From positions 1 through 24,005 of the forward strand of contig QKBW01000067.1 of assembly GCA_003245875.1 (NCBI GenBank): 24,005 bases of DNA. The letters are read 5' to 3'. A program made the translations under genes and the position numbers. This DNA is from Candidatus Kaiserbacteria bacterium. GTDB lineage: Bacteria > Patescibacteriota > Minisyncoccia > Phycocordibacterales > UBA918. The notes beneath the pieces are model-generated. The model was not told the origin of the DNA and searched no databases. It saw nothing but the letters and a program-made list of their open reading frames with translations. Position 1 is the stretch's first letter. Every line of letters starts with the position of its first letter. Shown one piece after another: positions 1,188 to 24,005 of the stretch.

Positions 1188-1192
1188 GTGCC

Positions 1193-2488: not shown

Positions 2489-3014
2489 GATTTGCTTCGC
2501 GTTTGGTGTCATGGTCCATCTCGCTTTTGTGAATGACTTCTTCGGCACGGTCGATAAAAAGTGTGCCATCAAGGTGGTCGGTTTCGTGTTGGAAGATTTG
2601 TGCCAAGAGGCCGCCGGCACCGCGCTCGTATTCGACGCCATGTTCATCCAGTGCGCGGAGCGTTACGTTTTTGGCCCGCCGCACCATGCCGTAATGCTCC
2701 GGTACCGAAAGGCATCCTTCACCAACCACGTGGGTGCGCTTTGATGATTTGATTATTTTTGGGTTGATAGCGATTAGCAGTGGTAGTGAATCGCGGTCTT
2801 CACTCTGATCTTCCACCAAGAAAAGGCGCTTAGCGACGCCTATTTGCGGAGCGGCAATAGCCACAGCAACAAACCCCTCGACATTGTACGACTTAAGAGC
2901 AGCCCGCATGTCTTTCACCAGCTTTGCCACGGTGCCATTTTCGATTTCTTCCTGAGTTATCTCCTCAGCGATGGCGTGAAGTGCGGGATGATTTTCTGGA
3001 ACTAATTTGGCCAT
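2481..3014 (-). CDS. def: Peptide deformylase
   Basis: EGCLS and QHETDHLDG motifs; motif 1 is the variant AVAIAAPQIG; lies in priA-def-fmt order. Confidence 0.95.
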   Translation of the reverse strand: MAKLVPENHPALHAIAEEITQEEIENGTVAKLVKDMRAALKSYNVEGFVAVAIAAPQIGVAKRLFLVEDQSEDRDSLPLLIAINPKIIKSSKRTHVVGEGCLSVPEHYGMVRRAKNVTLRALDEHGVEYERGAGGLLAQIFQHETDHLDGTLFIDRAEEVIHKSEMDHDTKREANHE

Positions 3015-3024
3015 AGATAAGGCT

Positions 3025-3033
3025 ACTATAGCA
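3025..3033 (-). promoter_or_regulatory. Extended -10 (TG-C-TATAGT) for def
   Basis: Reverse complement of 3025-3033; 10 nt from the hexamer to the ATG. Confidence 0.6.
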
Positions 3034-3038
3034 GATTG

Positions 3039-3067
3039 GGGCGGTTTTGGCGAAGCAAAAACCGCCC
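3039..3067 (-). terminator. Inverted repeat between priA and def
   Basis: GGGCGGTTTT (3039-3048) / AAAACCGCCC (3058-3067), a 10-bp perfect stem 16 nt after the priA stop. Confidence 0.6.
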
Positions 3068-3083
3068 ATCACTTTATTCCAGC

Positions 3084-4973
3084 TTAAACCAAACGGTCGG
3101 GGTTGATCTCAATGCGGACGTACGGTGGCAGTGTGCGCAGTGTGGTCATCAATTCTTCGTCCGGCCAAAGTGTGCGCGGGATGCGGAGCAAGCCATATTT
3201 GGTGGCATGTTCACTGGTAGTTGTCGGTGCATGATAAAAACGTGGCTGCCATTTTTCCAAATGTGTTGTTAACTCCGCTTCGGTAGCGCTCACTGTCGCT
3301 GCAGTACCCATAAAAGTAAGGTGAATGAAGGTGAAGAAAGGGGGATAGGAGAGCTGCTTACGCAAGGCGAGTTCTTCGGTATAAAACTGTTCCAGGTTGC
3401 CGGTTTCTGCCAAGCGAAGTAAGTCGTCCGGTTCGGTACGGGTTTGTACGTACATCATGTGAGAAGTTTTTTCGCGGATGGAGAGTAAGAGTGAGAAAAG
3501 TTCTTCATCAGAGCGCCAGGTAGGAATGGCGCGAGCTGCATCAAGCGACGTGATCATACTGTATGGAATCGGTGTTTCGATGTAGGGCATCACCATCGCG
3601 GTGCCAAGTAAAATTGCTCCTTTGCTTTCATAAAAATCACCGATGATCTTCTTGGCTTTGCGATACGTGGTCGCAGTTGTGTGATCGAATGTGTACACCG
3701 GTATATTAGGAAATTCACTCCTCAGGTACTCTTCGATCTGCTGAATACCAATGCCGCGTTCGCGCAAGCGCCAGGAACCACACAGTTCGCAGGTATCAGC
3801 GGCTTTGATGCGTTTACCGGAGGCGCTAGCGACAAACCAACGTTTTTCCTCGCCATTTTTCACTGTCTTAAAAAGGGAGTACGGCGCGCCAGACTCAGGA
3901 CAGCGAAAGATGTATCCGCAATCCATACAAGCGACGACCGGTGCAATACCGCGGCGGGCTGCATAGATGAAAGTGTTGGTGCGCTCGGCGGCGGCGGCGC
4001 GAAGCGCCGCCGCCATCTCCGGTGCCAACAGCGAAAATGTTTCCGACTTCAACTTGTCCGGCAGGTGAGTGACTACGGTAAAATCGCTGTTAAAACTGAT
4101 GCGGTTTGGTACTTCTTCTTCGGTGGCGTAGATATCTTCACGGCGTAAGTATTCGTCTTCAGTGCGCGGTACCAAGTCGCCGAGCAGTACATTACGGCCG
4201 GCTAGTTTGGCAGACACCTTCAGAGCGTCACGAATATCAAGGTACGGTCGGGTGCGCAGTTTATACGCGCGCGAACGAGATTGGTCGATAATGATCTCAG
4301 TAATGTCGTGACGATCAATAAAAGCATGTGTCGCAGTAGTAATAATGAGTTTGGCATGCGAGAGGTCTGCGCTCTGCTCATATGAAAGTTTTAGCTTTCG
4401 TTTGGTGTAAGCGGAAGAGAATGTGATGATCCTGTTTTCAATACCTTTTTCCAAATAGGCACGTGCCCGCTCTACGTCAGCGGCGGTTGGTACCACAAAC
4501 AACACTGAGCCGCGGTGCGCAAAGGTTTCTCGGATGCGGCTGCGGTAGGCACGGAAGCGATCTTCATAGGTACCATGCACGATGGCTGTTTGAACCGGCC
4601 CCTCGTTTGGGTTGAATGGCGTATCAAGTAATACACATTCACCGGTAATAATTTCTTTGGGTAGGAGAGAAAAAAGAATAGCGCCGCGCTCGGCTGGTAG
4701 TTGCTTGGTCAACGCATCAGCCAGTGCCATGATAAGGGCGGGAATGCGAGCATGTACAGTTTGCGGCGGCAGTTTCTTGAGTGTAAAGGTGGCGGCACGC
4801 AGCGCTGTCTTGGCGGTGGAAACGGGTGAGGAACCGATCACTAAGGCACGCTTAGTGTTGGAACGAATGGGCACGGAAATAATAGTGCCCGGAGTGTAAT
4901 TGGCCGCACTGTAGTAGGTAAGCGATTCAATCTGTGCTCCCCGAACCAAAGGAATAACCTCGATGACGAACAT
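3084..4973 (-). CDS. priA: Primosomal protein N' (PriA), degenerate helicase motifs
   Basis: N-terminal 3'-DNA-binding-like domain (LTYYS...PGTIISVPIRS), ARRGIAPVVACMDCG cysteine-rich region, GIGIQQIEE, ILLGT, QLSYPPF; adjacent to def-fmt. Confidence 0.88.
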   Translation of the reverse strand: MFVIEVIPLVRGAQIESLTYYSAANYTPGTIISVPIRSNTKRALVIGSSPVSTAKTALRAATFTLKKLPPQTVHARIPALIMALADALTKQLPAERGAILFSLLPKEIITGECVLLDTPFNPNEGPVQTAIVHGTYEDRFRAYRSRIRETFAHRGSVLFVVPTAADVERARAYLEKGIENRIITFSSAYTKRKLKLSYEQSADLSHAKLIITTATHAFIDRHDITEIIIDQSRSRAYKLRTRPYLDIRDALKVSAKLAGRNVLLGDLVPRTEDEYLRREDIYATEEEVPNRISFNSDFTVVTHLPDKLKSETFSLLAPEMAAALRAAAAERTNTFIYAARRGIAPVVACMDCGYIFRCPESGAPYSLFKTVKNGEEKRWFVASASGKRIKAADTCELCGSWRLRERGIGIQQIEEYLRSEFPNIPVYTFDHTTATTYRKAKKIIGDFYESKGAILLGTAMVMPYIETPIPYSMITSLDAARAIPTWRSDEELFSLLLSIREKTSHMMYVQTRTEPDDLLRLAETGNLEQFYTEELALRKQLSYPPFFTFIHLTFMGTAATVSATEAELTTHLEKWQPRFYHAPTTTSEHATKYGLLRIPRTLWPDEELMTTLRTLPPYVRIEINPDRLV

Positions 4974-4984
4974 AACCTTAGTAT

Positions 4985-5011
4985 AAAGGGTAAAAGGTCA
5001 AAGGCCAAAGG
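4985..5011. repeat. Four AAAGG units at 7-8 nt spacing directly upstream of the priA -10 box
   Basis: AAAGG at 4985, 4993, 5000 and 5007; TATACT (- strand) at 4980-4985, 6 nt before the priA ATG. Confidence 0.6.
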
Positions 5012-5034
5012 TATAACGAACTCGGGGCAAAAGT

Positions 5035-5090
5035 ACAGCACTGATTTCCGGAGGGCGGTTATTGGGGCGGTGGGCGCAGGAAATCACTGT
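5035..5090. other. Stem-loop with a large G-rich (+) / C-rich (-) loop in the murA-priA spacer
   Basis: TGATTTCC (5042-5049) / GGAAATCA (5079-5086), extended by ACAG/CTGT across a 3-nt bulge; the 29-nt loop contains GGGCGGT twice. Confidence 0.5.
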
Positions 5091-5118
5091 CACCACACCA
5101 CCAGCTGTTATTGGTACA

Positions 5119-6420
5119 TTATACCTCCTCTAAGTAATCAATCCTGGCGCCGAGGGACTGAAGGCGTTCGACGAGGTTCTCGTAGCCACGGTTGATGGAG
5201 TAGATATTGCGTAGAATAGAAGTACCCTCGGCGCCAAGCATGGCAATAAGAAGAATGGTGGCCGGGCGAAGGGCCGGTGGACAGATCAACTCAGTAGCGC
5301 GCAGTTTGGTTGGGCCGGTAATGTAGATTCGGTGCGGGTCGGCCAGGACAGTATCAGCGCCGAGCTTTTCTAATTCGGTAAAGTAGATAGCACGCTTCTC
5401 ATACATCCAGTCATGAATGAGTGTTTGCCCAATCGCCTGTGTGGCAATGACCGCAAAGAAAGGGAGGTTGTCGGCGTTGATACCCGGATACGGACGTGAG
5501 TGTATCTTTTCCGGTGGTGCGACAAGCCGGCTTTCTTTGAGTGTGAGGTCAACCAGTTTAACTTGACCATTCTCACCCATATATGGTTCGCTCTGCGTGA
5601 AGTGCAACCCCATTTTTTCCAAGACGAGAAGTTCCAGTTCAAGAAACTCGATTGGACAACGGGTAATGGTTAGCTCTGATCCGGTCACAATTGCTGCTGT
5701 AATGAAGAACATACTGTCGGTTGGATCTTCCGCGAGGGTATAGGTGATCGGGGTGTTGATTTCAGATAGACCGGTGACGGTAAGGGTGGTGGTGCCGACG
5801 CCGTCGATCTTTATGCCGCACGCCTGTAAGAAAGTACAAATTTCTTGCACCATGTAGTTGGCACTGGCGTATTTGATGATTGTGGTGGATGGCGTGAGCG
5901 CAGCAGCAAACAGTGCATTTTCGGTAACCGTGTCACCAGATTCATACAAAATGATCTCAGCAGGCTGTGTTTTCGCTACACTGATTTCGTACGATAAGTC
6001 GGTTGTATCGATAGACACACCAAATTTTTCCAAGGCAAAGAAGTGTGGACGTACGGTGCGGCTGCCGAGTTTGCAGCCGCCGGATTGTGGCAGGGAGAAT
6101 TTTTGCAAATGGTGGATGAGCGGCCCAATGAACATTACGATGCTGCGTGTTTTGCGTGCCGCTTCTTGATCGATGGTGGAAAGGTCAAAGGTAGCGGGTG
6201 GTGTAATGACCATAGTGTCGTCTTGCCAGTCGATCTTTACACCAATACTTTGCAACACTTCAATGAGTCTGAAAACTTCTTCAATACGCGGAACGCGCTT
6301 GAGGGTGGTGGTATTTTTGTTCAATAGTGAAGCACAGAGTAAGCCGACCGCGCCGTTCTTACTGGTGTTGGTGGCAATGGTGCCGGCGAGTTTTTTCCCG
6401 CCCTCAATTCGTACGTTCAT
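5119..6420 (-). CDS. murA: UDP-N-acetylglucosamine 1-carboxyvinyltransferase
   Basis: MNVRIEGGKKLAG start, SKNGAVGLL, catalytic-Cys loop SGGCKLGSR, HSRPYPGINAD, INRGYENLVERLQSLGA. Start reassigned to ATG 6420, because the track ORF overlaps mreB. Confidence 0.95.
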   Translation of the reverse strand: MNVRIEGGKKLAGTIATNTSKNGAVGLLCASLLNKNTTTLKRVPRIEEVFRLIEVLQSIGVKIDWQDDTMVITPPATFDLSTIDQEAARKTRSIVMFIGPLIHHLQKFSLPQSGGCKLGSRTVRPHFFALEKFGVSIDTTDLSYEISVAKTQPAEIILYESGDTVTENALFAAALTPSTTIIKYASANYMVQEICTFLQACGIKIDGVGTTTLTVTGLSEINTPITYTLAEDPTDSMFFITAAIVTGSELTITRCPIEFLELELLVLEKMGLHFTQSEPYMGENGQVKLVDLTLKESRLVAPPEKIHSRPYPGINADNLPFFAVIATQAIGQTLIHDWMYEKRAIYFTELEKLGADTVLADPHRIYITGPTKLRATELICPPALRPATILLIAMLGAEGTSILRNIYSINRGYENLVERLQSLGARIDYLEEV

Positions 6421-6496
6421 AGCAGGTCGAGTATAGCATATAGGTCTGCCTCTACAGAGGTTGTCCTCCTGCCCGCAACACTGTAGGATAGTGGGA
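6421..6496. promoter_or_regulatory. Divergent murA/mreB1 promoter region
   Basis: Minus strand: TG-C-TATACT (6430-6438), 9 nt before the murA ATG. Plus strand: TTGTCC (6461-6466)-N17-TAGGAT (6484-6489), 7 nt before the mreB ATG. Central palindrome CCTCT-AC-AGAGG at 6449-6460. Confidence 0.6.
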
Positions 6497-7510
6497 ATGT
6501 TATCGCGTTTTAGCCCAAAACTTGGTATTGATCTCGGTACCACCAATGTGTTGGTGTACGTACCCGGGCAAGGCATTGTACTCAATGAACCATCAGTTGT
6601 GGCGGTGTCTAATAATAGTGAAGTGTTGGCAGTAGGAGCTGAAGCAAAACGTATGGTTGGACGTACGCCAGAGAGTATTCGCGCCTATCGGCCAATGAAG
6701 GATGGTGTCATTGCCGATTATCGAGTAACCGAAGCTATGCTTCGCTACTTTTTGCAGAAGGCGATGGGTCGTTTCTCGATTTTCAAACCTGACGTCATGG
6801 TGTCAGTGCCGGCTGGTGTAACATCGACCGAGAAGCGTGCGGTAGTGGAAGCGGCCATGAAGGCCGGAGCTAAAAATGCGTATGTGGTAAAAGAGCCGAT
6901 TCTCGCTGCTATCGGTGCCGGGGTGCCTATTTACGAACCGCAAGGCCACATGATCGTCGATATTGGTGGTGGTACGATCGATGTAGCGGTCATTTCACTC
7001 GGCGGTATTGTGGCCGCCAACTCAGTGAAGTGCGCCGGTAATCGTATCGATGCAGCCATCATTGATTACATAAAAAAGACTCGTAACCTGGCGATTGGCG
7101 AGAAGACGGCCGAAGAGGTGAAGATAGAGATCGGTTCGGCTCTGCCTCTGGAAGAAGAACTCTCGATGGAGATAAAAGGCATTGATGTGTTGACCGGTTT
7201 GCCGCGTACGACCGAGGTGCGCACCAATGAAATTGTCAAAGCCATTGGTAAAGAGTTGCGTGAGATGGTGAAGGCGATCAAAGATGTTTTTCAGGAGACG
7301 CCACCGGAACTCGCTGCCGATATTATCGACGACGGCATCATTATGACCGGAGGCACTTCGCAACTACGCAATTTCCCAGAGCTGGTGAAGCGCCGCACTG
7401 GTGTGAAGGCACAACTAGCCAACCAAGCACTCTTTTGTGTAGTGAAGGGGACGGGAGTGGCATTAGAGCATCTGTCTACCTACAAGAAAGCAGTAATAGC
7501 GAAACGGTAG
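6497..7510 (+). CDS. mreB: Rod shape-determining protein MreB/Mbl family (stand-alone paralog 1)
   Basis: GIDLGTTN, NEPSVVA, RPMKDGVIAD, VDIGGGTIDVAVISLGG and GIIMTGG motifs; start taken as ATG 6497. Confidence 0.95.
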   Translation: MLSRFSPKLGIDLGTTNVLVYVPGQGIVLNEPSVVAVSNNSEVLAVGAEAKRMVGRTPESIRAYRPMKDGVIADYRVTEAMLRYFLQKAMGRFSIFKPDVMVSVPAGVTSTEKRAVVEAAMKAGAKNAYVVKEPILAAIGAGVPIYEPQGHMIVDIGGGTIDVAVISLGGIVAANSVKCAGNRIDAAIIDYIKKTRNLAIGEKTAEEVKIEIGSALPLEEELSMEIKGIDVLTGLPRTTEVRTNEIVKAIGKELREMVKAIKDVFQETPPELAADIIDDGIIMTGGTSQLRNFPELVKRRTGVKAQLANQALFCVVKGTGVALEHLSTYKKAVIAKR

Positions 7511-7528
7511 TATGTGAGGATGTGGACG

Positions 7529-7552
7529 GCGGCGGGGTACAAGCCCCGCCGC
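7529..7552 (+). terminator. GC-rich hairpin after mreB1, abutting the next -10 box
   Basis: GCGGCGGGG-tacaag-CCCCGCCGC followed by TTT, then TATGAT at 7558-7563. Confidence 0.6.
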
Positions 7553-7629
7553 TTTGGTATGATAGAGGTACCATATATGTACGATGTGATGGCGTTTTAT
7601 TTATCACATGTGTTCATTGGATAACCAAC

Positions 7630-10404
7630 ATGCCCGAGAATTTTCCACAACGTTTCAACTCTCCCCAAGAGGAGATTGCCTATTTGCGTGAGCGCATAGC
7701 GTCACGCGAGCGCGAACTCACCGTGCATAATCCGGAAGTAAAAAAGCCGGTAGTGGAGGTGGCTGGGAAGCAAGAACTCTTTGAATACGGCACTTTTACA
7801 CCTAACGCCGTACTGAGCAATGAGCATCAGCTTTCTGCTAGTGAGGTTGTTGCGCATACCGAAGTGGTAGCCGCAGCTGCTGATAAGGTCGCTGAGCTTG
7901 TAACCATCGCACAAGAAAAAGGCATTCGTAATGCGCTGTCCGTTTTGGAACGATTGGATGATGCTAGCATTATCGACGATGTACACCGTGAGCTTATCGC
8001 ACATATCCGCGAGGGAGCGCAGATGCAAGACTTGAAGGAAGGTGTGCCACCGTGGCAAGTCCTCCATATGACACTCTTTGAAGTGGCTTTGCCACAATAT
8101 AAAAACGAAGATAATACCAAGCAGTTTGGTGAGTTGGTGGCCTTGATGGAACAGTTTTATGCGGGTATGCAAGGGGTGGGTTATGGAAAGGGTGGAGAGC
8201 ACTTTGTGCTGGAGATAGCGGTTTCCAATAAAAGCGATGACATTATTTTTTATGTAGCGGTGCCAAATGAGTTTGTAAATCTCTTCGAAAAACAAATTCT
8301 CTCACTCTTTCCCAAGGCAGTTTTAACCCCGCAGCTTCACGACTACAACATTTTTGTTCCAAGTGGTACCTCAATTGTGTCGGTTGGTGAATTAAAAAAA
8401 CACCCCATTTATCCACTACGTATGGATGAAGATTTTAAGAATGATCCTCTCGCGGTGTTGCTCAATGCGTTTTCTAAGATTGAGCGTGACGGCGGCGGGG
8501 CAGCGTTGCAGGTGTGTATTCGCACACCAAAACATGATTATGTTGATCGCTATCGCGGCATCATCAAACGTATCAATAAGGGGATGCCAAAGCATGAGGC
8601 TATTCGCCGTGATAGCCTTAGTGGTGAGTTGGTTAGCACTTTCAAAGAAGTATTTATTACCAAGAAAAAAGATGGCGAAGATCCACACGACCCGGACCAC
8701 CAAGCTCTAGAATTATTTGAGAGTAAGATCGGCGCTCCAATTTTAGAAACGAACATTCGCATTGCTGTTTCGGCTGAAAAAGAACATCGCGCCAAACAAA
8801 TACTGCATGAGGTTGAGGCCACCTTTAATCAATTTGAAGAGGTAGAGAGTAACAAGCTCTCGTGGCGGCGCCCTGTGGGCGCCGCCCTGAAGCGTGAGCT
8901 CAAGGCTTTCTCTTTTCGTGAATTCATCAAAGGTGACACACTTCCGTTATCTATTTCCGAATTAGCAACCTTGATCCACTTCCCGAACGACGGCGAGGTA
9001 AGCTCTCCGCAATTCAAGCAGAGTGCCGCAAAAACAGCTGCCGCACCAACCGATATGCCAAATGAAGGCACCTTGCTCGGTATCAATAAGCATCGTGGCG
9101 TTGAGAAGGAGATTTTTGTGACCGACAAAGACCGCTTGCGCCACTTCTACATTATCGGACAGACCGGTACTGGTAAGTCAGTGTTTATGAAGAACATTAT
9201 CATCCAAGATATTTTGGCGGGAGCGGGCGTGTGTATGATCGACCCACACGGAACCGACATCGAAGATGTCTTGGCGGCTGTGCCCCTAGAACGTTTGGAT
9301 GATGTGATCTATTTCGACCCAGCCAATATGGAGCAGGTAGTCGGACTTAACATGTTGGAGTATGACCCGGCCAAGCCTGAACAGAAGACGTTTGTGGTCA
9401 ACGAGCTCTTTTCTATTTTTCAAAAGCTCTATGGTGCCAACCCGGAGAGTATGGGGCCAATGTTTGAACAGTACTTCCGTAACGCCACCTTGCTGGTGAT
9501 GGAAGATCCGGAGAGTGGTAATACCTTGATGGATATTAGTCGTGTGATGAGCGATGCGAAGTATCGCCGACAGAAGCTTGAAAAAGCTCGTAATCCGGTG
9601 GTGACACAATTTTGGAAAGAGATAGCCACCAAAGCTGGTGGAGAGGCGTCACTTGAAAACATTGTACCGTACATTGTTTCTAAGTTTGATGTGTTTACTG
9701 CTAACGACTATATGCGTCCGATTATCGGGCAGCAACATTCCACCTTCAACTTTCGTGACATCATGGATTCACGGAAGATCATGTTGGTCAATCTATCCAA
9801 AGGTCGCCTGGGAGAGATCAATGCCAACCTGATTGGCATGATCATCGTCGGGAAGATATTGATGGCTGCGCTATCGCGAGTTGATACGCCGGGCGGTAAT
9901 TTTCCACCGTTTTATCTCCATATTGACGAGTTCCAAAACGTATCAACTCCATCCATTGCCTCTATTCTTTCGGAAGCGCGCAAGTACAAGCTTGGGCTGA
10001 CCGTCGCGCACCAATTCATTGCTCAACTTGACGACAATATCCGTGATGCAGTCTTTGGTAACGTCGGGTCACTAACTGCCTTCCGAGTTGGTTCGGAGGA
10101 TGCAGATGCATTAGCTCACCAATTTGAGCCTGTTTTCAACGCACACGATCTGATCAATGTACCAAACTACAATGCGTACGCACGTGTCTTGGCCAACGGC
10201 ACACCGACCCGGCCGTTTAGCTTGGCCGCTATGCCGCCGCCAGAGGTCGACTACACCCGTGTACCGGAACTCATTGCACACAGTATGGCCCGCTATGGCC
10301 GCCCGCGCGCAGAGGTTGAGCAAGAGATTGAGCAACGCTACCAAAAACCACAGTCCGAACTCGTTGCTGACAGCCCGTTTAGTTCACTAGAGAGTGGTAT
10401 ATAA
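7630..10404 (+). CDS. VirD4/TraD/TrwB-like (HerA-FtsK superfamily) P-loop ATPase with a large N-terminal extension, 924 aa
   Basis: Walker A GQTGTGKS (9157-9180), CMIDPHG, Walker B YLHIDEFQN (9913-9939), SEARKYKLGLTVAHQ, DAVFGNVGS. No obvious N-terminal TM segment. Start taken as ATG 7630, because the track start overlaps mreB. Confidence 0.85.
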   Translation: MPENFPQRFNSPQEEIAYLRERIASRERELTVHNPEVKKPVVEVAGKQELFEYGTFTPNAVLSNEHQLSASEVVAHTEVVAAAADKVAELVTIAQEKGIRNALSVLERLDDASIIDDVHRELIAHIREGAQMQDLKEGVPPWQVLHMTLFEVALPQYKNEDNTKQFGELVALMEQFYAGMQGVGYGKGGEHFVLEIAVSNKSDDIIFYVAVPNEFVNLFEKQILSLFPKAVLTPQLHDYNIFVPSGTSIVSVGELKKHPIYPLRMDEDFKNDPLAVLLNAFSKIERDGGGAALQVCIRTPKHDYVDRYRGIIKRINKGMPKHEAIRRDSLSGELVSTFKEVFITKKKDGEDPHDPDHQALELFESKIGAPILETNIRIAVSAEKEHRAKQILHEVEATFNQFEEVESNKLSWRRPVGAALKRELKAFSFREFIKGDTLPLSISELATLIHFPNDGEVSSPQFKQSAAKTAAAPTDMPNEGTLLGINKHRGVEKEIFVTDKDRLRHFYIIGQTGTGKSVFMKNIIIQDILAGAGVCMIDPHGTDIEDVLAAVPLERLDDVIYFDPANMEQVVGLNMLEYDPAKPEQKTFVVNELFSIFQKLYGANPESMGPMFEQYFRNATLLVMEDPESGNTLMDISRVMSDAKYRRQKLEKARNPVVTQFWKEIATKAGGEASLENIVPYIVSKFDVFTANDYMRPIIGQQHSTFNFRDIMDSRKIMLVNLSKGRLGEINANLIGMIIVGKILMAALSRVDTPGGNFPPFYLHIDEFQNVSTPSIASILSEARKYKLGLTVAHQFIAQLDDNIRDAVFGNVGSLTAFRVGSEDADALAHQFEPVFNAHDLINVPNYNAYARVLANGTPTRPFSLAAMPPPEVDYTRVPELIAHSMARYGRPRAEVEQEIEQRYQKPQSELVADSPFSSLESGI

Positions 10405-10416
10405 TTAGAGGCGATC

Positions 10417-12750: not shown

Positions 12751-12762
12751 TAAAATGAATTT

Positions 12763-13083
12763 ATGACAATGGATACACAAGAGCTACTAAATAAAGATAT
12801 TATTTCAGCCATTGGGTTTGATGCACTTTTGCCCGAAGAACAGGATGAATTTATTTCACAAATTGGCACAGTTTTACTAGAGAGCGCACTCACCAAGCTC
12901 ATGGTGGAACTCAATGATGAGCAACTCAAGGCACTCGATTATTATTTGGAGGACGAACCTTCAGCTGATATTTTGCTCAAACACTTATTTGACCAATACC
13001 CACAGTTTGAATCGATTATGCAGGAAGAAACGGTAGCGTTTAAACAAGAGATGTTGGAATTGTTCGAGGAAACGGAAAAGTAA
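12763..13083 (+). CDS. Small acidic helical protein, DUF5663-like (CPR-associated)
   Basis: IGFDALLPEEQDEFISQIG...LNDEQLKAL...YPQFESIMQEETVAFK pattern recalled as DUF5663-like; 26 D/E versus 6 K and no R. Confidence 0.6.
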   Translation: MTMDTQELLNKDIISAIGFDALLPEEQDEFISQIGTVLLESALTKLMVELNDEQLKALDYYLEDEPSADILLKHLFDQYPQFESIMQEETVAFKQEMLELFEETEK

Positions 13084-13097
13084 TGCACAGATTACAA

Positions 13098-13128
13098 CAC
13101 CAGCGGCGGGCTATGCCCGCCGCTGGTG
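13098..13128. repeat. Perfect 14-bp inverted repeat (3-nt loop) immediately upstream of a -10 box
   Basis: CACCAGCGGCGGGC-tat-GCCCGCCGCTGGTG; no U tract; TATACT at 13132-13137. Confidence 0.8.
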
Positions 13129-13143
13129 CTGTATACTACAGGT

Positions 13144-14634
13144 ATGAAGGGAAATGTTCTTGGTTCTTCGAACGCACGGCAATTTGATGTTGCTGATGAA
13201 TCACAAATCATCGGGCTTTTGCAGATGGTGCGACACAGTACACTTGATGATGAAACCAAGGACGATATTCGCGATATTGTTTGTGAATATCAAACTGCAC
13301 ACAAACCGGAACTTTTAGAAGAGCTCCAGTTGTTTGTGCAACCATTGGGTGTTGCAATTGTTGGTGCGGAAGCTCCAGCTACAGATAGTGCACCAAAGGC
13401 TGAAGTGGTAACCGAACAGCCGACTGATGTTTCAGAAGAACTGAAACGTGCGTCGACTATGCCAACTATGGGGCGTATTCGTCCGGTCCCACAATGGCGT
13501 GCAGCCAGTACGACACCTGCGACAGTACGTAAGGTGCCGGTTACCATACGAAGCGTTGCTGATACTGCTCCAACCGCAAAGGAAAAGCCGGAGGTACCAG
13601 TCTCGATTACACCAAAAGCACAAGAACCAGCAACCCCAACACCTCCTGCTGCATCGGTCATGCCAACATCCGAGAGTGTCGTTGCGCAGCCTGCAGTTGT
13701 CAACGAAGTAGAAAATCCTACAGCTTCTGGTGGAGTCACAGATACGCAAACAGCGCAGGCGCGTATCGCCGAGATCAAACGAACGGTGAACACGGCAGTT
13801 GGTAACCCGGTTAATTTGATAGACGTCGACAATGCTGTGGGGCGCGAATACATGGCGGCATTACTCGATGCCATGAAGGCGGCGGTTACTGGTGGTCAAA
13901 CATTAATGACAAGCATGGAACGTTTAGAAAAGGCCTACACCGCTGTAGAGCCATTGCTTCATGTGCCACCAAAAGCACAAGAACCAGCAACCCCAACACC
14001 TCCTGCTACACCAGTCGTATCGACACCGGCGACTAAAACGGTGGTTGAGGAAACCTCTACTACACAAGAACCAGCAACCAAATTATCTCATGACAACGAC
14101 GAGGAGCATATATCCGCTGTCGAGGAGGCATCTCAATTGGACGTAGAGGAACACAAACAGCCTGAGTCGGAAGTAGCGGAGACTACCCAACAACCGATAG
14201 TTATGTCCGGTGAAGCACCAAGAGGCTCAGTAGCTGCTATGGCACGGGCTTCTGCCAAATCAACGCCAAAACCTACGCCTTCTCCCGATACGGAAAAACA
14301 AAAAAGCGACCCGCTTATGAATGAACAGATAACCTCTGGTCTCGCGCAACTATTAAGTGAATGGAAACTTTTCCATAGCAGTGGTGTTTTTGGAACGGGG
14401 CCACACGGCATTGATCACCCGCTGTACCAAGAGATGCGTAATACACCAATGAACGCCATTATCTCTGGTCGTTTTGAGGGTGCAACGCCTGAAATAAGGC
14501 AAAGTGTGACGGATTATATGAACGGTTGGCGATACGAGCAGGGAATGACTCACGACATGCAGGAAACATTTGAGCACTACCTCAGACGTGTCATCAAAAC
14601 CATTATCGACAAGCGTGCAAGCACCATGGCATAA
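13144..14634 (+). CDS. Hypothetical protein (496 aa): three globular-looking blocks separated by Pro/Thr/Ala/Glu-rich linkers
   Basis: ATG 13144 lies 6 nt after TATACT. N-terminal helical block, central helical block (ARIAEIKR...LEKAY), and an aromatic-rich C-terminal block (LLSEWKLF...HPLY...YMNGWRYEQG...FEHYLRRV). No TM or signal peptide seen. Confidence 0.8.
   Translation: MKGNVLGSSNARQFDVADESQIIGLLQMVRHSTLDDETKDDIRDIVCEYQTAHKPELLEELQLFVQPLGVAIVGAEAPATDSAPKAEVVTEQPTDVSEELKRASTMPTMGRIRPVPQWRAASTTPATVRKVPVTIRSVADTAPTAKEKPEVPVSITPKAQEPATPTPPAASVMPTSESVVAQPAVVNEVENPTASGGVTDTQTAQARIAEIKRTVNTAVGNPVNLIDVDNAVGREYMAALLDAMKAAVTGGQTLMTSMERLEKAYTAVEPLLHVPPKAQEPATPTPPATPVVSTPATKTVVEETSTTQEPATKLSHDNDEEHISAVEEASQLDVEEHKQPESEVAETTQQPIVMSGEAPRGSVAAMARASAKSTPKPTPSPDTEKQKSDPLMNEQITSGLAQLLSEWKLFHSSGVFGTGPHGIDHPLYQEMRNTPMNAIISGRFEGATPEIRQSVTDYMNGWRYEQGMTHDMQETFEHYLRRVIKTIIDKRASTMA
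13610..14007 (+). repeat. 41-bp perfect direct repeat (13610-13650 and 13967-14007) encoding PKAQEPATPTPPA; partial third copy at 14063-14079
   Basis: Direct comparison: CACCAAAAGCACAAGAACCAGCAACCCCAACACCTCCTGCT occurs twice, 357 bp apart, in frame. Confidence 0.9.
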
Positions 14635-14641
14635 TGAAGCC

Positions 14642-15205: not shown

Positions 15206-15244
15206 TATTGAGCGCATGTATTGAGAGTGTTATCATGTATACAT

Positions 15245-15790
15245 ATGGAATTTGCAACATTTGAAACACGTTTAAAAGAGGTTGAAGAATGGTTAGTTCG
15301 CGAGTATTCCGGTATTCGTACTGGGCAGGCCGCGCCTGCTTTGCTTGATGGAGTGAGGGTTGATAATTATGGTTCAATGATGCCGATCAATCAGGTTGGT
15401 TCTGTCAGTATTGAAGATGCGCGTACCTTGCGTGTCGCACCATGGGACGTCGGACAAGTAGCAGCCTTGGAGCGTGCCATTAAGGATGCAGACCTTGGTG
15501 TTTCCATCGCAACCGACTCGTCTGGCTTACGCGTGATTTTTCCGGAATTGACCAGTGACCGCCGTGAACAACTTCTTAAATTGGCGAAGAGCAAATTGGA
15601 AGAGGCTCGTGTTCGGGTGCGTGGCGTGCGTGATGACATAATGAAAGAGCTCGATAAACAAGAAAAGGCAGGTGATTTGAGTGAGGATGAAAAGTTCACC
15701 GCCAAGGAAAATGCACAAAAGACAGTTGATGGTATGAATACTGGACTTGAAGCACTTTTTACCAAAAAGGAAATTGAGATCAAGAAATGA
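15245..15790 (+). CDS. frr: Ribosome recycling factor
   Basis: IRTGQAAPALLDGVRVDNYG, LRVAPWD, LTSDRREQLLK, EEARVRVRGVR; start ATG 15245 lies 8 nt after TG-T-TATCAT. Confidence 0.96.
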   Translation: MEFATFETRLKEVEEWLVREYSGIRTGQAAPALLDGVRVDNYGSMMPINQVGSVSIEDARTLRVAPWDVGQVAALERAIKDADLGVSIATDSSGLRVIFPELTSDRREQLLKLAKSKLEEARVRVRGVRDDIMKELDKQEKAGDLSEDEKFTAKENAQKTVDGMNTGLEALFTKKEIEIKK

Positions 15791-16887: not shown

Positions 16888-16903
16888 TTCTTGAATTTTT
16901 GTA

Positions 16904-17006
16904 TAGAATGAACGGATATGCATAGGTATTGTCTGAGAAATCCCTTCGGGGTCAGTGAATAAATAGACGCCCAGCGTCCAGATTCTTAATTTTAATTTCA
17001 CTCCCT
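16904..17006 (+). promoter_or_regulatory. proS promoter and structured 5' leader
   Basis: TAGAAT at 16904-16909; CCC-TTCG-GGG hairpin (16942-16951) stacked on CTGA/TCAG; GACGC-cca-GCGTC (16966-16978) followed by a T-rich tract. Confidence 0.5.
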
Positions 17007-18272: not shown

Positions 18273-18284
18273 TACAATGCACGA

Positions 18285-19358
18285 ATGACTTGGTTGGGAA
18301 AAAAAATCCACGATGTTTTGGATTCGGTGTCTACCGATATCGGTATAGACCTTGGAACGGCAAATACCTTGGTGTATGTAAAAGGGAAAGGTATTGTCGT
18401 CAATGAACCAACAATAGTTGCACTCAATAAGAAAACCGGCCAATTGGTAGCTGTTGGCGATGCGGCAAAGACCATGATGGGGCGCACCCCGGCACACATT
18501 GATGTGGTACGACCATTGGTCGAGGGTGTTATTTCTGACTTTGAAGTGACTGAGGAAATGCTCAGTTACTTGATTAACAAAGTGCGTGGTGAGGTGAAAA
18601 CAATCGTTGCTCCTCGTGTACTTGTTGGTGTGCCGTGTGGTATTACGAATGTAGAAATGCGTGCAGCCCGCGATGCGGCACGTAATGCAGGTGCGCGTGA
18701 CGTCTTTTTGGTTTATGAACCACTGGCCGCTGCTATCGGTGCTAAGTTGCCGATTGAAAAAGCTACCGGGAGCATGATCATAGATATTGGTGGTGGTACG
18801 GCTAATATGGCAGTGATCTCCCTAGGCGGTATGGTAACTGCTAAAAACTTACGTTTGGCAGGTGACCACCTGACCGCGGCTATTGTGTCGTATATTCGTG
18901 ACCAGTTTAAAGTATTGGTAGGAGAAAAAACCGCTGAAGAGGCTAAGATCAAATTGGCTATGATTGTATCTGGTGATGACATGCGAGAAATGGTAGTCCG
19001 TGGACGTGATGTGGTTACTGGCTTACCGCGCGAGGTGGTCGTTACAGACACTGACATTCGTAATGCCATCTCGTCAGCTGTTGATACTTTGGTTGAAACA
19101 GTACGTGGCGTTCTGGAGCAAACACCGCCGGAAGTTTTGGCTGATATTATGCAGCGTGGTATTCATCTTTCCGGCGGTGGGGCACTCATACCGGGCCTGG
19201 CTGAACTGCTGGAAGAAATCATCCAGGTGCCGGTCATTGTTGTACCTGATCCCCTGCGGGCGGTAGTGCGCGGTACGGGTATAATTTTGGAAAATCTTGA
19301 TCGTTATGAAGACATACTCATCGATAACGAAGGAGAACTCACGACACAACTCACGTAG
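18285..19358 (+). CDS. mreB: Rod shape-determining protein MreB (paralog 2, in the mreBCD-pbp2 cluster)
   Basis: GIDLGTANTLV, RPLVEGVISDF, IDIGGGT and GIHLSGGGALI motifs. Confidence 0.96.
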   Translation: MTWLGKKIHDVLDSVSTDIGIDLGTANTLVYVKGKGIVVNEPTIVALNKKTGQLVAVGDAAKTMMGRTPAHIDVVRPLVEGVISDFEVTEEMLSYLINKVRGEVKTIVAPRVLVGVPCGITNVEMRAARDAARNAGARDVFLVYEPLAAAIGAKLPIEKATGSMIIDIGGGTANMAVISLGGMVTAKNLRLAGDHLTAAIVSYIRDQFKVLVGEKTAEEAKIKLAMIVSGDDMREMVVRGRDVVTGLPREVVVTDTDIRNAISSAVDTLVETVRGVLEQTPPEVLADIMQRGIHLSGGGALIPGLAELLEEIIQVPVIVVPDPLRAVVRGTGIILENLDRYEDILIDNEGELTTQLT

Positions 19359-20253: not shown

Positions 20254-20489
20254 GATGGGTGGTTTTTCTTGCGCTATGTGCGTTTGGCGTTTTTGTACCA
20301 GCCGTGGTACTGATGTTGGCAGTATTCCTGTACGTGTTGCGCTGGGGGTGGTGGGAGATACTGTTTGCAGCATTTATTGTCGATATTTTGTTGGCAACGT
20401 CTACGTGGCCGCACTATACTTTTGGTGCTTTGATATTAAGTTTTTCGGCAGAACTCGTACGACCGCGTTTTTCATTTTATACTAGGTAG
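20250..20489 (+). CDS. Small integral membrane protein in the mreD position (79 aa)
   Basis: Almost wholly hydrophobic; ATGA-coupled to mreC and ends 1 nt before pbp2. The MreD identity is inferred from position only. Confidence 0.65.
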   Translation: MRWVVFLALCAFGVFVPAVVLMLAVFLYVLRWGWWEILFAAFIVDILLATSTWPHYTFGALILSFSAELVRPRFSFYTR

Positions 20490-20490
20490 C

Positions 20491-22176
20491 ATGTTCTCAT
20501 TCCGCAAGAAGAAGAAACAAGTTGATGTCGACGAGATATTCCTTGACGCGGCCAATGTGTCCGCTTTTAATCAAGGGCGCATGGAAGGTCGACTCGAATT
20601 GCCATTGACCACACGTAATGTATACGTGGTGGCGGTCATTTTTGCGCTTATTGCACTGTGGTTTTTTCACAAGATCTTTTTGATGCAAGTGGTCGAAGGT
20701 GCATCGTATCGCGCCCAGAGTGAACGTAACCATATTGATCAAGATGTGCTTATTGCCGAACGCGGTGTTGTGTATGACCGCAATGGTGAGCTGCTAGCCT
20801 GGAACGAGATCGGAACCAGAGATGACAGCAGCTTTCCATACCGGGCGTACACTGACCGTGCTGGTCTGGGGCAAATCGTCGGGTATGTAAGTTACCCATT
20901 GAAAGACAAGCAAGGCTTTTATTATCGTACGGAATATGTAGGGCGTAATGGCATTGAGAGTACCTACAATGATCAGCTGGCAGGCGTTAACGGTAAGCAA
21001 CTCGTTGAAGTTGATGCTAAGGGCGATGTTCTCTCAGAGCATGCCGTTGAGCGTGCCACTCCCGGTACCGAACTCCATCTTTCCATTGATGCAGAACTTT
21101 CTGAAGCGATGTATAGCATTATTGAAGCAGCTTGCGAGGAGGCCAACATACGCAGTGGTGCAGCTGCCATTATGGATGTACATACCGGGGAAATATTGGC
21201 ATTGACCAGCTTCCCATCTTACGACCCGGAAGTCATGGCTGATGGTGATGATGTGGCGCTGATAAAGCAATACAACGAAGATGTCAGGCTGCCATTTCTT
21301 AACAAGATATTGGCTGGCGTATATACGCCTGGTTCAATCGTGAAGCCCTTTGTTGCGTATGGTGCATTAGCCGAACAAGTGATCGACCCAAATAAGATCA
21401 TTGTGAGTACAGGTCAGATCGTGGTGCCGAATCCATACACACCGAGTCAGCCATCCATCTTTCGCGACTGGCGCGCACAAGGTGCTATGACCATGCGCGA
21501 AGCCATTGCATTTTCTTCTGACGTGTACTTCTACATCATTGGTGGTGGTTTTGAAGATCAGGCGGGACTCGGTATTGATAAGATGGACAAATATTTCCAT
21601 ATGTTTGGCCTTGGTTCTTCTACCGGTATTGCTTTAGCCAATGAGCAGTCCGGTGTTGTGCCGAGTCCGACATGGAAGCAGGAATTGTTTGATGAAGACT
21701 GGCGTTTGGGTGATACGTACTACACTGCTATTGGTCAGTATGGTTTCTTGACTACACCGTTGCAGATGTTACGTTCGTATGCGGCATTGGCAAATGGCGG
21801 CTATTTGCTCACGCCGCAATTGGAGCTTGGGGCGAGTGCTTCATCAACAGATCTGCATCTCAACCAAGATTATCTGCAAATCGTGCAGGAAGGTATGCGT
21901 AAAACAGTAACGCTCGATGGCGGTACCGCCCGTTCTTTGGAGAAAAATTATGTCAGTATTGCTGCCAAATCCGGTACTGCTGAGCTAGATTTCAGTAAGT
22001 CATACCTCAACTCTTGGGCGGCAGGGTATTGGCCATATGAAAAGCCACGTTATGCATTTATCCTGCTTATGGAACATGCCCCGTACACTAACCATCTGGG
22101 TGCAACTACCGTGATGGGAAGGGTTATGGATTGGATACACGAACATCATCCCGATTACCTGCAGGCAGATGAATAG
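20491..22176 (+). CDS. mrdA: Class B penicillin-binding protein 2 (transpeptidase)
   Basis: N-terminal TM segment, ERGVVYDRNG, PGSIVK (SxxK), SSDVYFY (SxD) and KSGTAE (K[ST]G) motifs. Confidence 0.92.
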   Translation: MFSFRKKKKQVDVDEIFLDAANVSAFNQGRMEGRLELPLTTRNVYVVAVIFALIALWFFHKIFLMQVVEGASYRAQSERNHIDQDVLIAERGVVYDRNGELLAWNEIGTRDDSSFPYRAYTDRAGLGQIVGYVSYPLKDKQGFYYRTEYVGRNGIESTYNDQLAGVNGKQLVEVDAKGDVLSEHAVERATPGTELHLSIDAELSEAMYSIIEAACEEANIRSGAAAIMDVHTGEILALTSFPSYDPEVMADGDDVALIKQYNEDVRLPFLNKILAGVYTPGSIVKPFVAYGALAEQVIDPNKIIVSTGQIVVPNPYTPSQPSIFRDWRAQGAMTMREAIAFSSDVYFYIIGGGFEDQAGLGIDKMDKYFHMFGLGSSTGIALANEQSGVVPSPTWKQELFDEDWRLGDTYYTAIGQYGFLTTPLQMLRSYAALANGGYLLTPQLELGASASSTDLHLNQDYLQIVQEGMRKTVTLDGGTARSLEKNYVSIAAKSGTAELDFSKSYLNSWAAGYWPYEKPRYAFILLMEHAPYTNHLGATTVMGRVMDWIHEHHPDYLQADE

Positions 22177-22215
22177 TCACCGCTATAGCACTGTACCTGT
22201 GGAAAAACGGTATGA

Positions 22216-22243
22216 TTGACCAGACCCCGTTTCTCTGTATAAT
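22216..22243 (+). promoter_or_regulatory. sigma70 promoter for greA
   Basis: TTGACC-N16-TATAAT, 24 nt upstream of ATG 22268. Confidence 0.7.
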
Positions 22244-22267
22244 TGGAGCCAATAAACCAAACTTGAT

Positions 22268-22738
22268 ATGAATGATACACACTCGTTTTTGACCAAAGAA
22301 AAATTTGAAGAGTTGAAAAAGGAGCTTGAACATTTGAAGACAGTACGACGCAAGGAGGTTGCAGAATCACTCGAGTACGCGCGTAGCCTCGGTGACCTCT
22401 CCGAGAACGCTGAGTACCAAGAGGCTCGCGACATGCAGGCTGCCATTGAAGAGCGCATTGCCCACTTGGAGAAGACCATTAAAGAAGCAAAGATCGTTGC
22501 TGGTAATCAAAAGGGTGATGTGGTCGGTCTTGGTTCTAAGGTCTGCATTCAGAAGGCGAGTGAGAAAGGAAGCATTTGTTACACTATAGTAGGAGCGGAG
22601 GAGGCCAATATTCAAGAACACAAGCTCTCATATCTCTCACCACTCGGTGAGGCGCTCATGGGGAAGGGTAAGGGCGAGGAGATCCAGTTTGAAACACCAA
22701 ATGGAAAGCAGAAGTACGCGGTATTGAGTGTTGAATAA
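22268..22738 (+). CDS. greA: Transcription elongation factor GreA
   Basis: LTKEKFEELKKEL, ARSLGDLSENAEY and SYLSPLGEALMGK motifs. Confidence 0.97.
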   Translation: MNDTHSFLTKEKFEELKKELEHLKTVRRKEVAESLEYARSLGDLSENAEYQEARDMQAAIEERIAHLEKTIKEAKIVAGNQKGDVVGLGSKVCIQKASEKGSICYTIVGAEEANIQEHKLSYLSPLGEALMGKGKGEEIQFETPNGKQKYAVLSVE

Positions 22739-22751
22739 AGTTAAGGCAAAG

Positions 22752-22792
22752 CATACAGCGCGCCGACAACTACGTTGTCGGCGCGCTGTATG
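22752..22792. terminator. Perfect 19-bp inverted repeat between greA and lysS
   Basis: CATACAGCGCGCCGACAAC-tac-GTTGTCGGCGCGCTGTATG, followed by TTTG and then TACGAT (22798-22803). Confidence 0.75.
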
Positions 22793-22812
22793 TTTGTTAC
22801 GATAGTCGTATT

Positions 22813-24005
22813 ATGTCATCACAAGCAGAAATCAAAGAGGAACGGTTGCGCAAGCGCGCCATTTTGGAGTCAGCTGGCATGGATCCGTATGCCGCTAAGA
22901 CTGAGCGAACGCATACCATCAAAGCCATCCTGGATGACTTTGAAGCGCTTGCTGATGACGAAGCCGCATGTGTGGTAGCGGGACGTATCATAGCATTGCG
23001 ACGCCATGGCGGTTCTGCTTTTGCTGATATCTTTGATGGCACCGGTCGGCTGCAGGTCTTTTTCTCTCGCGATGCGATCGGTTTGAAACTTTTTGATCTA
23101 CTTAACGATGCTATTGACCCCGGCGACTTTATTGAAGTAAAAGGTACGGTTTTCCAGACCAATCGTGGCGCGGAAGCAGTTGCTGCCTCTGATTGGCGCA
23201 TCCTTACCAAGGCGCTATCCAATTTACCGACTGAGCACTTTGGTATCAAGGATGAAGATGAACGTTACCGTAAACGCTATCTTGATATCTTGCTTGATCC
23301 AGAGTTGCGCGATTTGTTGGCAAAAAAAGCCCATTTCTGGGAAGTGACCCGCCGCTTTTTGACCGAGCACAACTTCTTGGAAGTAGAGACGCCAACTATT
23401 GAGCTCACAACCGGCGGTGCCGAAGCGCGGCCGTTCAAGACACATCATAATGATTTTGATATTGATGTCTTTATGCGTATTTCGGTCGGAGAGCTTTGGC
23501 AGAAACGTTTGATGGCGGCTGGGCTACCTAAAACATTTGAAATTGGTCGCGTATACCGCAATGAAGGTACGAGTCCGGAGCATTTGCAGGAGTTTACTAA
23601 CATGGAGTTTTATTGGGCGTACGCAGACTATCGTGATGGTATGGAGCTTATTAAAGAAATGTACCAAACGATTGCCAAAGAGGTGTTTGGTACCACGAAA
23701 TTTACCACGCGCGGACACACCTTTGATCTGGCTGACGAATGGGTAGAGATAGATTATGTGAAAGAGATCAAAGATCGTACTGGTATTGATGTAACCAAGG
23801 CGACTGAGGTAGAGATGGCAGCGACTGCTACCGAGCTTGGTATCAAGTTTGATGGTAACAATCGCGAGCGTTTAACCGATACACTTTGGAAGTATTGTCG
23901 TAAGCAGATAGCTGGCCCGGCATTCTTAGTGAACCATCCGTTGGTGGTGGCACCATTGGCAAAGAAGAAAGATGGAGCTGTAGCACAAATGTTCCAACCG
24001 ATCAT
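22813..24005 (+). CDS. lysS: Lysyl-tRNA synthetase class II, 3'-truncated (absent from the ORF track)
   Basis: Manual translation from ATG 22813: MSSQAEIKEERLRK..., VAGRIIALRRHGGSAF, RYRKRYLD, FLEVETP, GGAEARPFKTHHN, FEIGRVYRNEG...HLQEFT. Confidence 0.97.
   Translation, partial: MSSQAEIKEERLRKRAILESAGMDPYAAKTERTHTIKAILDDFEALADDEAACVVAGRIIALRRHGGSAFADIFDGTGRLQVFFSRDAIGLKLFDLLNDAIDPGDFIEVKGTVFQTNRGAEAVAASDWRILTKALSNLPTEHFGIKDEDERYRKRYLDILLDPELRDLLAKKAHFWEVTRRFLTEHNFLEVETPTIELTTGGAEARPFKTHHNDFDIDVFMRISVGELWQKRLMAAGLPKTFEIGRVYRNEGTSPEHLQEFTNMEFYWAYADYRDGMELIKEMYQTIAKEVFGTTKFTTRGHTFDLADEWVEIDYVKEIKDRTGIDVTKATEVEMAATATELGIKFDGNNRERLTDTLWKYCRKQIAGPAFLVNHPLVVAPLAKKKDGAVAQMFQPI

Follow-up and report, generated by a model that had tools for sequence, protein, structure and literature searches.

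The window analysed here, the whole stretch of 24,005 nt, is an entire contig (C49) of a draft genome of 624.7 kb in 71 contigs, with 47% GC and an estimated completeness of 97.7%. This genome carries the label G000, and L- and G-numbers denote loci and genomes of its relatives. The window contains fpg, hpf, fmt, def, priA, murA, two mreB genes, mreC, pbp2, a gene for a VirD4/TraD-like ATPase, a short holB, frr, rseP, proS, greA and lysS, together with three open reading frames (ORFs) that have no family match; an Rfam scan of the window returned zero family matches. The closest public MreB loci lie in metagenome-assembled genomes labelled Nomurabacteria, Elulimicrobium, Paceibacterota and Parcubacteria, which points to an uncultured, Parcubacteria/Paceibacteria-type member of the candidate phyla radiation (CPR). 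The element in question is a hexamer of the type TANNNT, similar to the -10 element of bacterial promoters, which stands a few nucleotides before the ATG start codon of many of these genes and, as described below, of many genes throughout the genome.

A first-pass annotation of the window had listed twelve such hexamers with their gaps to the ATG, and all of them were found in the sequence as given. For scoring, an 11-nt extended -10 matrix derived from the entire genome was used, with thresholds of 5.96 (1% false positives, hereafter strong) and 3.67 (3% false positives), and the hexamers are listed here as predicted promoters or boxes.

3025..3030, minus strand: predicted def promoter, TGc-TATAGT; gap 10 to ATG 3014; score 10.6; TGn present; T at -1.
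4980..4985, minus strand: predicted priA promoter, TATACT; gap 6 to ATG 4973; score 6.6; T at -1.
6430..6435, minus strand: predicted murA promoter, TGc-TATACT; gap 9 to ATG 6420; score 13.9, the best of the window.
6484..6489, plus strand: weak and doubtful box of mreB1, TAGGAT; gap 7 to ATG 6497; all sites at gaps 4-12 score 2.0 or less.
10400..10405, plus strand: box of orf10417, TATAAT; gap 11 to ATG 10417; score 6.8; overlaps the TAA stop of the VirD4-like gene.
12751..12756, plus strand: moderate box of orf12763, TAAAAT; gap 6 to ATG 12763; score 4.2.
13132..13137, plus strand: predicted orf13144 promoter, TATACT; gap 6 to ATG 13144; score 9.3; directly 3' of a GC-rich hairpin.
14630..14635, plus strand: predicted holB promoter, TGg-CATAAT; gap 6 to ATG 14642; score 8.9.
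15231..15236, plus strand: predicted frr promoter, TGt-TATCAT; gap 8 to ATG 15245; score 8.0.
18273..18278, plus strand: predicted mreB2 promoter, TAG-TACAAT; gap 6 to ATG 18285; score 7.9.
20478..20483, plus strand: predicted pbp2 promoter, TATACT; gap 7 to ATG 20491; score 9.3; within the preceding ORF.
22798..22803, plus strand: predicted lysS promoter, TGt-TACGAT; gap 9 to ATG 22813; score 9.0.

Ten of the twelve boxes exceed the 1% threshold, and strong boxes stand at 10 of the 21 window starts; the orf12763 box is moderate, exceeding the 3% threshold, and the mreB1 box is weak. With a rate of 6% at internal in-frame ATGs, the chance of finding 11 strict TANNNT boxes at the approximately 22 window starts is about 9e-8 (binomial P). 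The details of the first-pass annotation were likewise borne out: a TGn motif precedes the boxes of def, murA, lysS, holB and frr, the boxes at 10400 and 14630 contain or abut the TAA stop of the upstream gene, and the pbp2 box lies inside the preceding ORF. The starts to which these gaps refer were compared with homologous proteins. A mechanical ORF caller extends murA, mreB1, holB and frr to an upstream TTG or GTG, and the family profiles begin near the downstream ATG; for murA, the profile begins two residues downstream of ATG 6420, which is the true start. The ATGs of mreB2, pbp2, lysS, greA and proS correspond to residue 1 of the proteins of relatives.

Among relatives, the boxes of mreB2, holB, lysS and pbp2 are kept while the spacers diverge. 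The region upstream of mreB2 reads TAGTACAAT in three of the four nearest relatives (L005, L006, L007) and has the TAGTATGAT variant in L004, and the boxes of the relatives stand at gaps of 7, 7, 11 and 10, with a divergent spacer sequence. The CATAAT variant of the holB box is kept in four relatives, pbp2 has an identical box and gap in L007 and TGa-TATGAT with a gap of 6 in L006, and lysS is preceded by TAGTAT, TAGGAT or TAAACT at a gap of 7-8. At frr, three of the five relatives examined (L004, L005, L006) carry a TATAAT or TACAAT 16-23 nt upstream instead.

The genome-wide analysis used 638 non-overlapping ORFs covering 90% of the genome, obtained with a crude ORF caller, the homology checks of starts being those made in the window. 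TANNNT occurs at a gap of 5-10 nt before 214 of 586 first ATGs, compared to 88 +/- 10 after shuffling of the same 40 upstream bases, to 76-86 when the search window is moved 8-20 nt further upstream, and to 6% of internal in-frame ATGs. It precedes 12, 7, 8 and 8% of first ATGs at gaps 6, 7, 8 and 9, whereas internal ATGs, or all ATG trinucleotides, show 1-2% per gap. Looked at from the side of the motif, strong matrix matches that are followed by the ATG of an ORF of at least 80 amino acids (aa) number 64, 35, 32, 42 and 17 at gaps 6 to 10, and about 5 per gap elsewhere. The spacing thus peaks at gap 6, a shoulder reaches to 9-10 and all other gaps lie on a flat background, and the comparison of motif position with shuffled controls, which had been set beforehand, gives a clear excess at this offset. 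Further upstream, strong promoter matches are thin (about 2 per nt, compared to 59 at gap 6), suggesting that leadered promoters exist, but as a minority.

We then examined what kind of motif this is. Sites were chosen for alignment solely on T-A-N-N-N-T and the distance to the ATG, and the aligned boxes nevertheless have preferred bases outside the hexamer (T-17 at a frequency of 0.44, T-15 at 0.52 and G-14 at 0.59), which give the consensus TnTGnTATAcT. Inside the hexamer, T-10, A-9 and A or C at -8 are preferred, and TATACT is the commonest form (60 of 269). TGn stands ahead of 38% of the start-proximal boxes, compared to 8% of the 17,149 other TANNNT sites. By these features, the boxes appear to be classical sigma-70 extended -10 (TRTGn) promoter elements. 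The first-pass annotation had called them -10-only, which holds for this genome, where the alignments show no -35 signal, boxes without TG included, and where the count of two-hexamer promoters in the window (25) does not exceed that in shuffled sequences (25.5). It does not hold for the relatives: 16 of them, pooled and aligned likewise, have T, T and G at positions -35, -34 and -33, followed by a 17-nt spacer, and a TTG at -35 makes sense for a promoter alone. The relatives with the TTG at -35 to -33 (L004-L036) thus differ from G000, which has no -35 signal and a stronger TG at -15/-14, and this suggests a shift within the clade from dependence on the -35 to dependence on the extended -10. 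The housekeeping sigma factor encoded in the genome is full-length (473 aa), with regions 1.1, 1.2, 2, 3 and 4.

The boxes are placed specifically before one type of start: among the early candidates, 14.5% of ATGs follow a strong box, compared to 1.1% of GTGs and 1.2% of TTGs, with a background of 0.7-0.9%. Leaderless mRNAs require a 5' AUG, and adjacency of the box to ATG, and not to GTG or TTG, fits this need. As the first-pass annotation had noted for the boxed genes of the window, strong Shine-Dalgarno (SD) sequences are missing; across the genome, the SD-like motifs GGAG, GAGG and AGGA are not enriched, occurring at 6.5% of starts compared to 8.6% of internal ATGs. The 16S rRNA 3' end, which had been proposed as a check, ends in GGATTAATTCCAATT, compared to GGATCACCTCCTTA in E. 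coli, with ATTCC in place of CCTCC, and hence the anti-SD is gone. In addition, no match to bS21 (PF01165) or uL1 (PF00687) was found in this 97.7% complete draft genome, although a gene missing from a draft need not be missing from the organism; bS1 is present, with 359 residues and four S1 domains. The ribosome would therefore be unable to use SD pairing, because ATTCC replaces CCTCC in its 16S tail, and bS21 and uL1 were not found. An alternative pairing with the new 16S tail was considered and rejected, as GGAA, GAAT, GGAAT or AATTA stand upstream of only 9% of starts, compared to 6.7% of internal ATGs, and the k-mers enriched in genes without a box (ATAA, CATAA and TAA-type) are variant -10 boxes and stop codons rather than complements of the tail. 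The single 16S rRNA gene is itself divided over two contig ends (C7:97-915 and C54:21391-22010), with the break at model position 873/874, which means that the assembly is broken here or that the gene carries an insertion, the latter being common in CPR.

How many genes carry a box depends on how the gene lies relative to its upstream neighbour. A strong box was found at 24% of first ATGs, and a mixture estimate puts the non-background starts at approximately 43%. The frequency of strong boxes by gene arrangement is as follows.

Start 16-40 nt behind a co-directional gene: 53%.
Start 41-100 nt behind a co-directional gene: 44%.
Start more than 100 nt behind a co-directional gene: 23%.
Divergent start: 35%.
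Start 0-15 nt behind a co-directional gene: 10%.
Overlapping start: 8%.

The boxes at a spacing of 0-15 nt are often built on the upstream stop codon and have poor hexamers, with TGn in 15% only, and in the ribosomal-protein cluster (S10/spc-type) weak boxes precede several genes and none precedes others. The earlier proposal that most genes, even in clusters, have their own promoter is therefore supported for about half of the genes at 16-100 nt spacing, but not for the genome as a whole (24%, or approximately 43%) nor for tight junctions (8-10%). Overall, roughly one third to half of the genes have such a box 6-10 nt before the ATG, with mRNAs that most likely start at the AUG.

The base directly before the start codon was also examined. 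A pyrimidine stands at -1 in 77-91% of box genes and, together with A+1 and T+2, makes a Y-R-Y sequence, an element which has been found at bacterial transcription start sites (TSSs) 7-8 bp past the -10 (PMC12641261). The preference is not confined to genes with a box: T is found at -1 of 54% of gene starts overall (in the window, for example, at 15786, 19305 and 20080) and likewise of genes without a box, compared to 31% of internal ATGs, and is most frequent (69%, G being at 0%) where a co-directional gene ends 0-15 nt upstream. Hence, T at -1 was rejected as proof of a TSS, given that no-box and tightly coupled genes have it equally or more often. Its strength in the tightly packed genes rather implies that U-AUG is preferred, in part at least, on the level of the RNA, when initiation or re-initiation proceeds without SD. 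An A-richness at -3 to -6 is likewise seen at all starts, and the RNA folding is weakest within the first 20 nt 3' of the ATG. U at -1 and the A-rich, unstructured context are the sole signals that we see at what appear to be promoterless internal genes.

We consider it very probable that these elements are extended -10 promoters joined directly to the start codon, and that the mRNAs made from them are leaderless or have a leader of 1-5 nt and are translated without SD pairing. The hexamers, 6-10 nt ahead of the ATG, would be the -10 elements of sigma-70-type extended -10 promoters, from which RNA polymerase would start at the A of the ATG or a few nucleotides before it, and the ribosome with the initiator tRNA would presumably bind the 5' AUG directly. 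About a third to half of the genes would be expressed in this way, many of them only 16-100 nt behind a co-directional neighbour; the remainder would comprise genes packed closely inside operons, which have a U before the AUG but lack a promoter, and a leadered minority. The motif, its position, its specificity for ATG and the absence of both SD enrichment and anti-SD are direct observations, and they agree with the first-pass proposal that the mRNAs begin at or near the AUG; the TSSs and the mode of translation we infer from the sequence.

Several points weigh against this explanation. The gaps of 9-11 nt (def, murA, lysS and orf10417) imply unusually long discriminators or leaders of 2-5 nt; the orf10417 box, for instance, would yield a leader of about 4 nt. 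The T at -1, as described above, is no weaker, and in part stronger, in no-box and tightly coupled genes and is not specific to TSSs. A strong hairpin at -68 to -19 was found in only about 9% of box genes, compared to 3% of random windows, indicating that gene-by-gene termination is not the rule, and read-through polycistronic transcripts probably coexist. Finally, gene starts outside the window come directly from the crude ORF caller.

The promoters could be real but secondary, with protein made mostly from read-through transcripts by SD-independent internal initiation or re-initiation, and with leaderless mRNAs minor or conditional. This would accord with the small number of strong terminator-like hairpins between co-directional genes, the many genes without a box and the U-AUG context found everywhere. 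However, the association with ATG only and the sharp spacing imply selection on the geometry between TSS and AUG, which would be pointless for minor transcripts, and we regard this alternative as improbable.

The first-pass annotation had also offered an mRNA-level reading, in which UAnnnU 6-10 nt before the AUG would be a substitute for a ribosome-binding site, recognised by rRNA, bS1 or an initiation factor. A genome that needs SD-independent initiation at its internal genes could make use of such a signal, and weak TANNNT motifs do precede several genes of the S10/spc-type cluster, RNA-level features (U at -1, A-rich -3 to -6) are found at all starts and a bS1 with four S1 domains is available. 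Nevertheless, the conserved positions are those of the DNA contacts of sigma-70 (A-11, T-7, TG at -15/-14 and T-17), the TTG at -35 of the relatives, 23 nt further upstream, would be senseless for a ribosome site, and the box is not complementary to the 16S tail. Moreover, strong boxes are rare (8-10%) at overlapping or 0-15 nt junctions, where an mRNA signal would be most needed, and the best box of the window belongs to the divergent start of murA. The mRNA-level reading is thus disfavoured, and we hold it to be decidedly unlikely.

Hardly credible is an artefact of AT-rich intergenic DNA, upstream TAA or TAG stops and mis-chosen starts: several of the 0-15 nt boxes are indeed built on stops with poor scores (TAGTAT, TAGCGT, TAATTT; TGn in 15%), and the TATAAT before TTG 19297 is plain mreB2 coding sequence, but the genome has 47% GC, the 214 boxes observed far exceed those of the shuffled (88 +/- 10) and shifted (76-86) controls, non-CPR loci show no excess, and the starts of mreB2, pbp2, lysS, greA and proS are residue 1 in relatives, and these controls exclude a composition artefact.

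We next compared extended -10 promoters at the start codon, the explanation that we prefer, with the situation in other genomes, noting that the samples are small, the gene calls crude and the related genomes not independent. In 39 CPR MreB loci, boxes precede 34% of first ATGs, compared to 6.5% of internal ATGs, and SD-like motifs precede 8%; in the 40-odd non-CPR loci retrieved with the same query, boxes are at background (7.8% compared to 6.6% of internal ATGs) and SD-like motifs stand at 30%. Among the readable 16S tails of relatives, 18 of 19 lack an intact CCTCC (including G021, with a partial CTCCT), the only canonical tail being that of G026. In this more distant CPR genome (loci L038 and L121-L126), the 16S tail, which lies on a contig of 83 kb, is the canonical GGATCACCTCCTTT, and boxes stand at 31% of first ATGs (5% of internal ATGs), with SD-like motifs at just 10% (7% internal). 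Its anti-SD is thus apparently kept but little used. In a sample of Patescibacteria, the CACCTCC tail is present in 137 of 301 genomes and in none of the five belonging to the same order as the present genome. In 24 genomes with a canonical tail (20-40 kb each), TANNNT shows a spike at gap 6 (39, compared to about 13 per gap), with TGn at 28% compared to 13%, and SD-like motifs precede 19% of starts compared to 10% of internal ATGs. Seven genomes that have lost the tail show a stronger spike at gap 6 (34, compared to about 8) and SD-like motifs at background.

This distribution suggests that the promoter-at-ATG architecture is older and more widespread than the loss of the anti-SD. Since CPR genomes that keep CCUCC already show the gap-6, TGn-type spike and a weak use of SD, leaderless starts may have come before the anti-SD loss. 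They could then be a trait of the whole Patescibacteria/CPR, one Parcubacteria branch having subsequently lost the anti-SD, bS21 and uL1 as leaderless and U-AUG starts became dominant, a scenario to which we give an even chance. If it is true, CPR would be the third, and the largest, of the bacterial lineages whose expression is mainly SD-free and largely leaderless, and would show, as a natural experiment, how SD pairing can be dispensed with.

Parts of this arrangement are known from other bacteria. Extended -10 (TGn/TRTGn) sigma-70 promoters occur in E. coli and Gram-positives, with the TG one base upstream of the hexamer, T-17 preferred and the -35 dispensable; here, unlike in those organisms, they would make up the main class of promoters in the genome and be joined directly to the start codon. 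In Bacteroidota, the anti-SD is present but unused, and the mRNAs are leadered, with genes lacking SD and having A-rich, unstructured upstream regions. The present genome resembles them in the lack of SD and in its A-rich, unstructured upstream regions, and differs in that it has lost the anti-SD and should make a large part of its mRNAs without a leader. In group C of GeneMarkS-2, which includes Actinobacteria such as Mycobacterium tuberculosis and Streptomyces and Deinococcus-Thermus such as Deinococcus deserti, a Pribnow-type -10 lies 6-8 nt from many starts, 25-50% of transcripts are predicted to be leaderless, and in D. deserti more than 60% of the mapped genes are leaderless (PMC6028130). 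The sharp placement of the -10 near many start codons is shared with group C, as is the lack, predicted here, of a leader and ribosome-binding site on those mRNAs. However, the remaining genes of group C use SD, and its 16S rRNA keeps the anti-SD, whereas here neither SD enrichment nor anti-SD was found; many boxes lie close behind co-directional genes, beyond classical operon heads, and the promoters appear to be extended -10 promoters without a -35. The text of the group C survey does not include the CPR lineage (PMC6028130).

The loss of the anti-SD has been described in a subgroup of Parcubacteria, where it overlaps with the loss of uL1 and the frequent loss of bS21 (Tsurumaki et al., RNA 2022, PMC9297842). 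The present genome resembles this subgroup, its 16S tail lacking CCTCCT and uL1 and bS21 not being found, and so do the 19 relatives sampled, 18 of which, as given above, have no intact CCTCC. That study concluded that SD helices are probably not formed, did not address how start codons are chosen and does not contain the word 'leaderless' in its text (PMC9297842). A full-text literature search turned up no description of leaderless genes for CPR, Patescibacteria, Parcubacteria or Saccharibacteria, and no paper linking leaderlessness to anti-SD loss. Hence, leaderless-rich genomes in other phyla and the anti-SD loss of Parcubacteria are already known, and the connection between them is, as far as we found, unreported. 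A promoter placed at the ATG is a candidate answer to the question, left open by PMC9297842, of how ribosomes without an anti-SD find the start codon. There are also consequences for annotation: gene finders that expect SD will misplace starts, as in the TTG-extended murA, mreB1, frr and holB, and a -10-to-ATG rule corrects them. Furthermore, proximity would be an unreliable guide to operons in these genomes if many genes at close spacing carry promoters of their own.

The window starts without an adjoining strong box include three with a different arrangement.

22216..22243, plus strand: predicted two-hexamer greA promoter, TTGACC-16-TATAAT; 24 nt before ATG 22268; 11 of 12 consensus matches.
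681..686, plus strand: predicted hpf promoter, TGgTG-TATAAT; 32 nt before ATG 719; score 8.6; none at gap 4-12.
15787..15790, plus strand: ATGA, in which the start of rseP and the stop of frr overlap; no score above -7.9 at gap 4-12; no box in relatives either.

The greA promoter is the sole near-consensus two-hexamer promoter of the window and would give a purine-rich leader of about 17 nt (22216-22267); its TATAAT is kept in five relatives, 17-24 nt ahead of the ATG, and so is the length of the leader. With promoters 24 and 32 nt upstream, greA and hpf would be leadered exceptions, the former a conserved one, and rseP appears to be a coupled internal gene without a promoter. On matrix scoring of the window starts, no box was found for mreC, the mreD-like ORF, fmt or the VirD4-like gene. 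Two candidates were rejected: the TAATTT at gap 8 of proS scores below background and is probably due to chance, three of five relatives (L005, L006, L008) having a TATAAT or TACAAT 8-34 nt upstream, and the TATAAT before TTG 19297 at mreC sits in the conserved mreB2 coding sequence mentioned above.

A perfect 19-bp palindromic hairpin (12 GC pairs, 3-nt loop), without a clear U tract on either strand, lies at 22752-22792, between the greA stop and the lysS -10 box, and a similar GC hairpin precedes the orf13144 box at about 13100-13128. That a GC-rich hairpin stands in for the -35 was rejected as a general feature: it is real at a few loci (orf13144 and lysS) and, as noted above, accompanies only a small fraction of box genes.

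The ORF at 1193 (109 aa, without a family match; window 1140-1522, ATG 1193) has AAAGGAGGT 6 nt upstream of its ATG, despite the anti-SD-less 16S rRNA. Genome-wide, 12 of the 89 AAGGAGG sites are followed within 3-9 nt by the ATG of an ORF of at least 40 aa, compared to 2-6% for control heptamers, and there seems to be a small class of SD-led, mostly small ORFs.

The gene for the housekeeping sigma factor (C38; locus L088 1012-2560, minus strand) encodes an N-terminal extension of about 100 residues that is rich in lysine and resembles histone H1. A TATAGT box stands approximately 60 nt upstream of its ATG, a hairpin lies between the two, and the gene is probably leadered. The two MreB paralogues share the one contig, at 6497-7510, divergent from murA, and at 18285-19358, where mreB2 heads an mreB-mreC-(mreD)-pbp2 cluster. 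Searches of sequencing runs for the DNA of the window gave no RNA run and only two DNA runs, one labelled hydrothermal vent metagenome and one just metagenome, the latter being probably the source.

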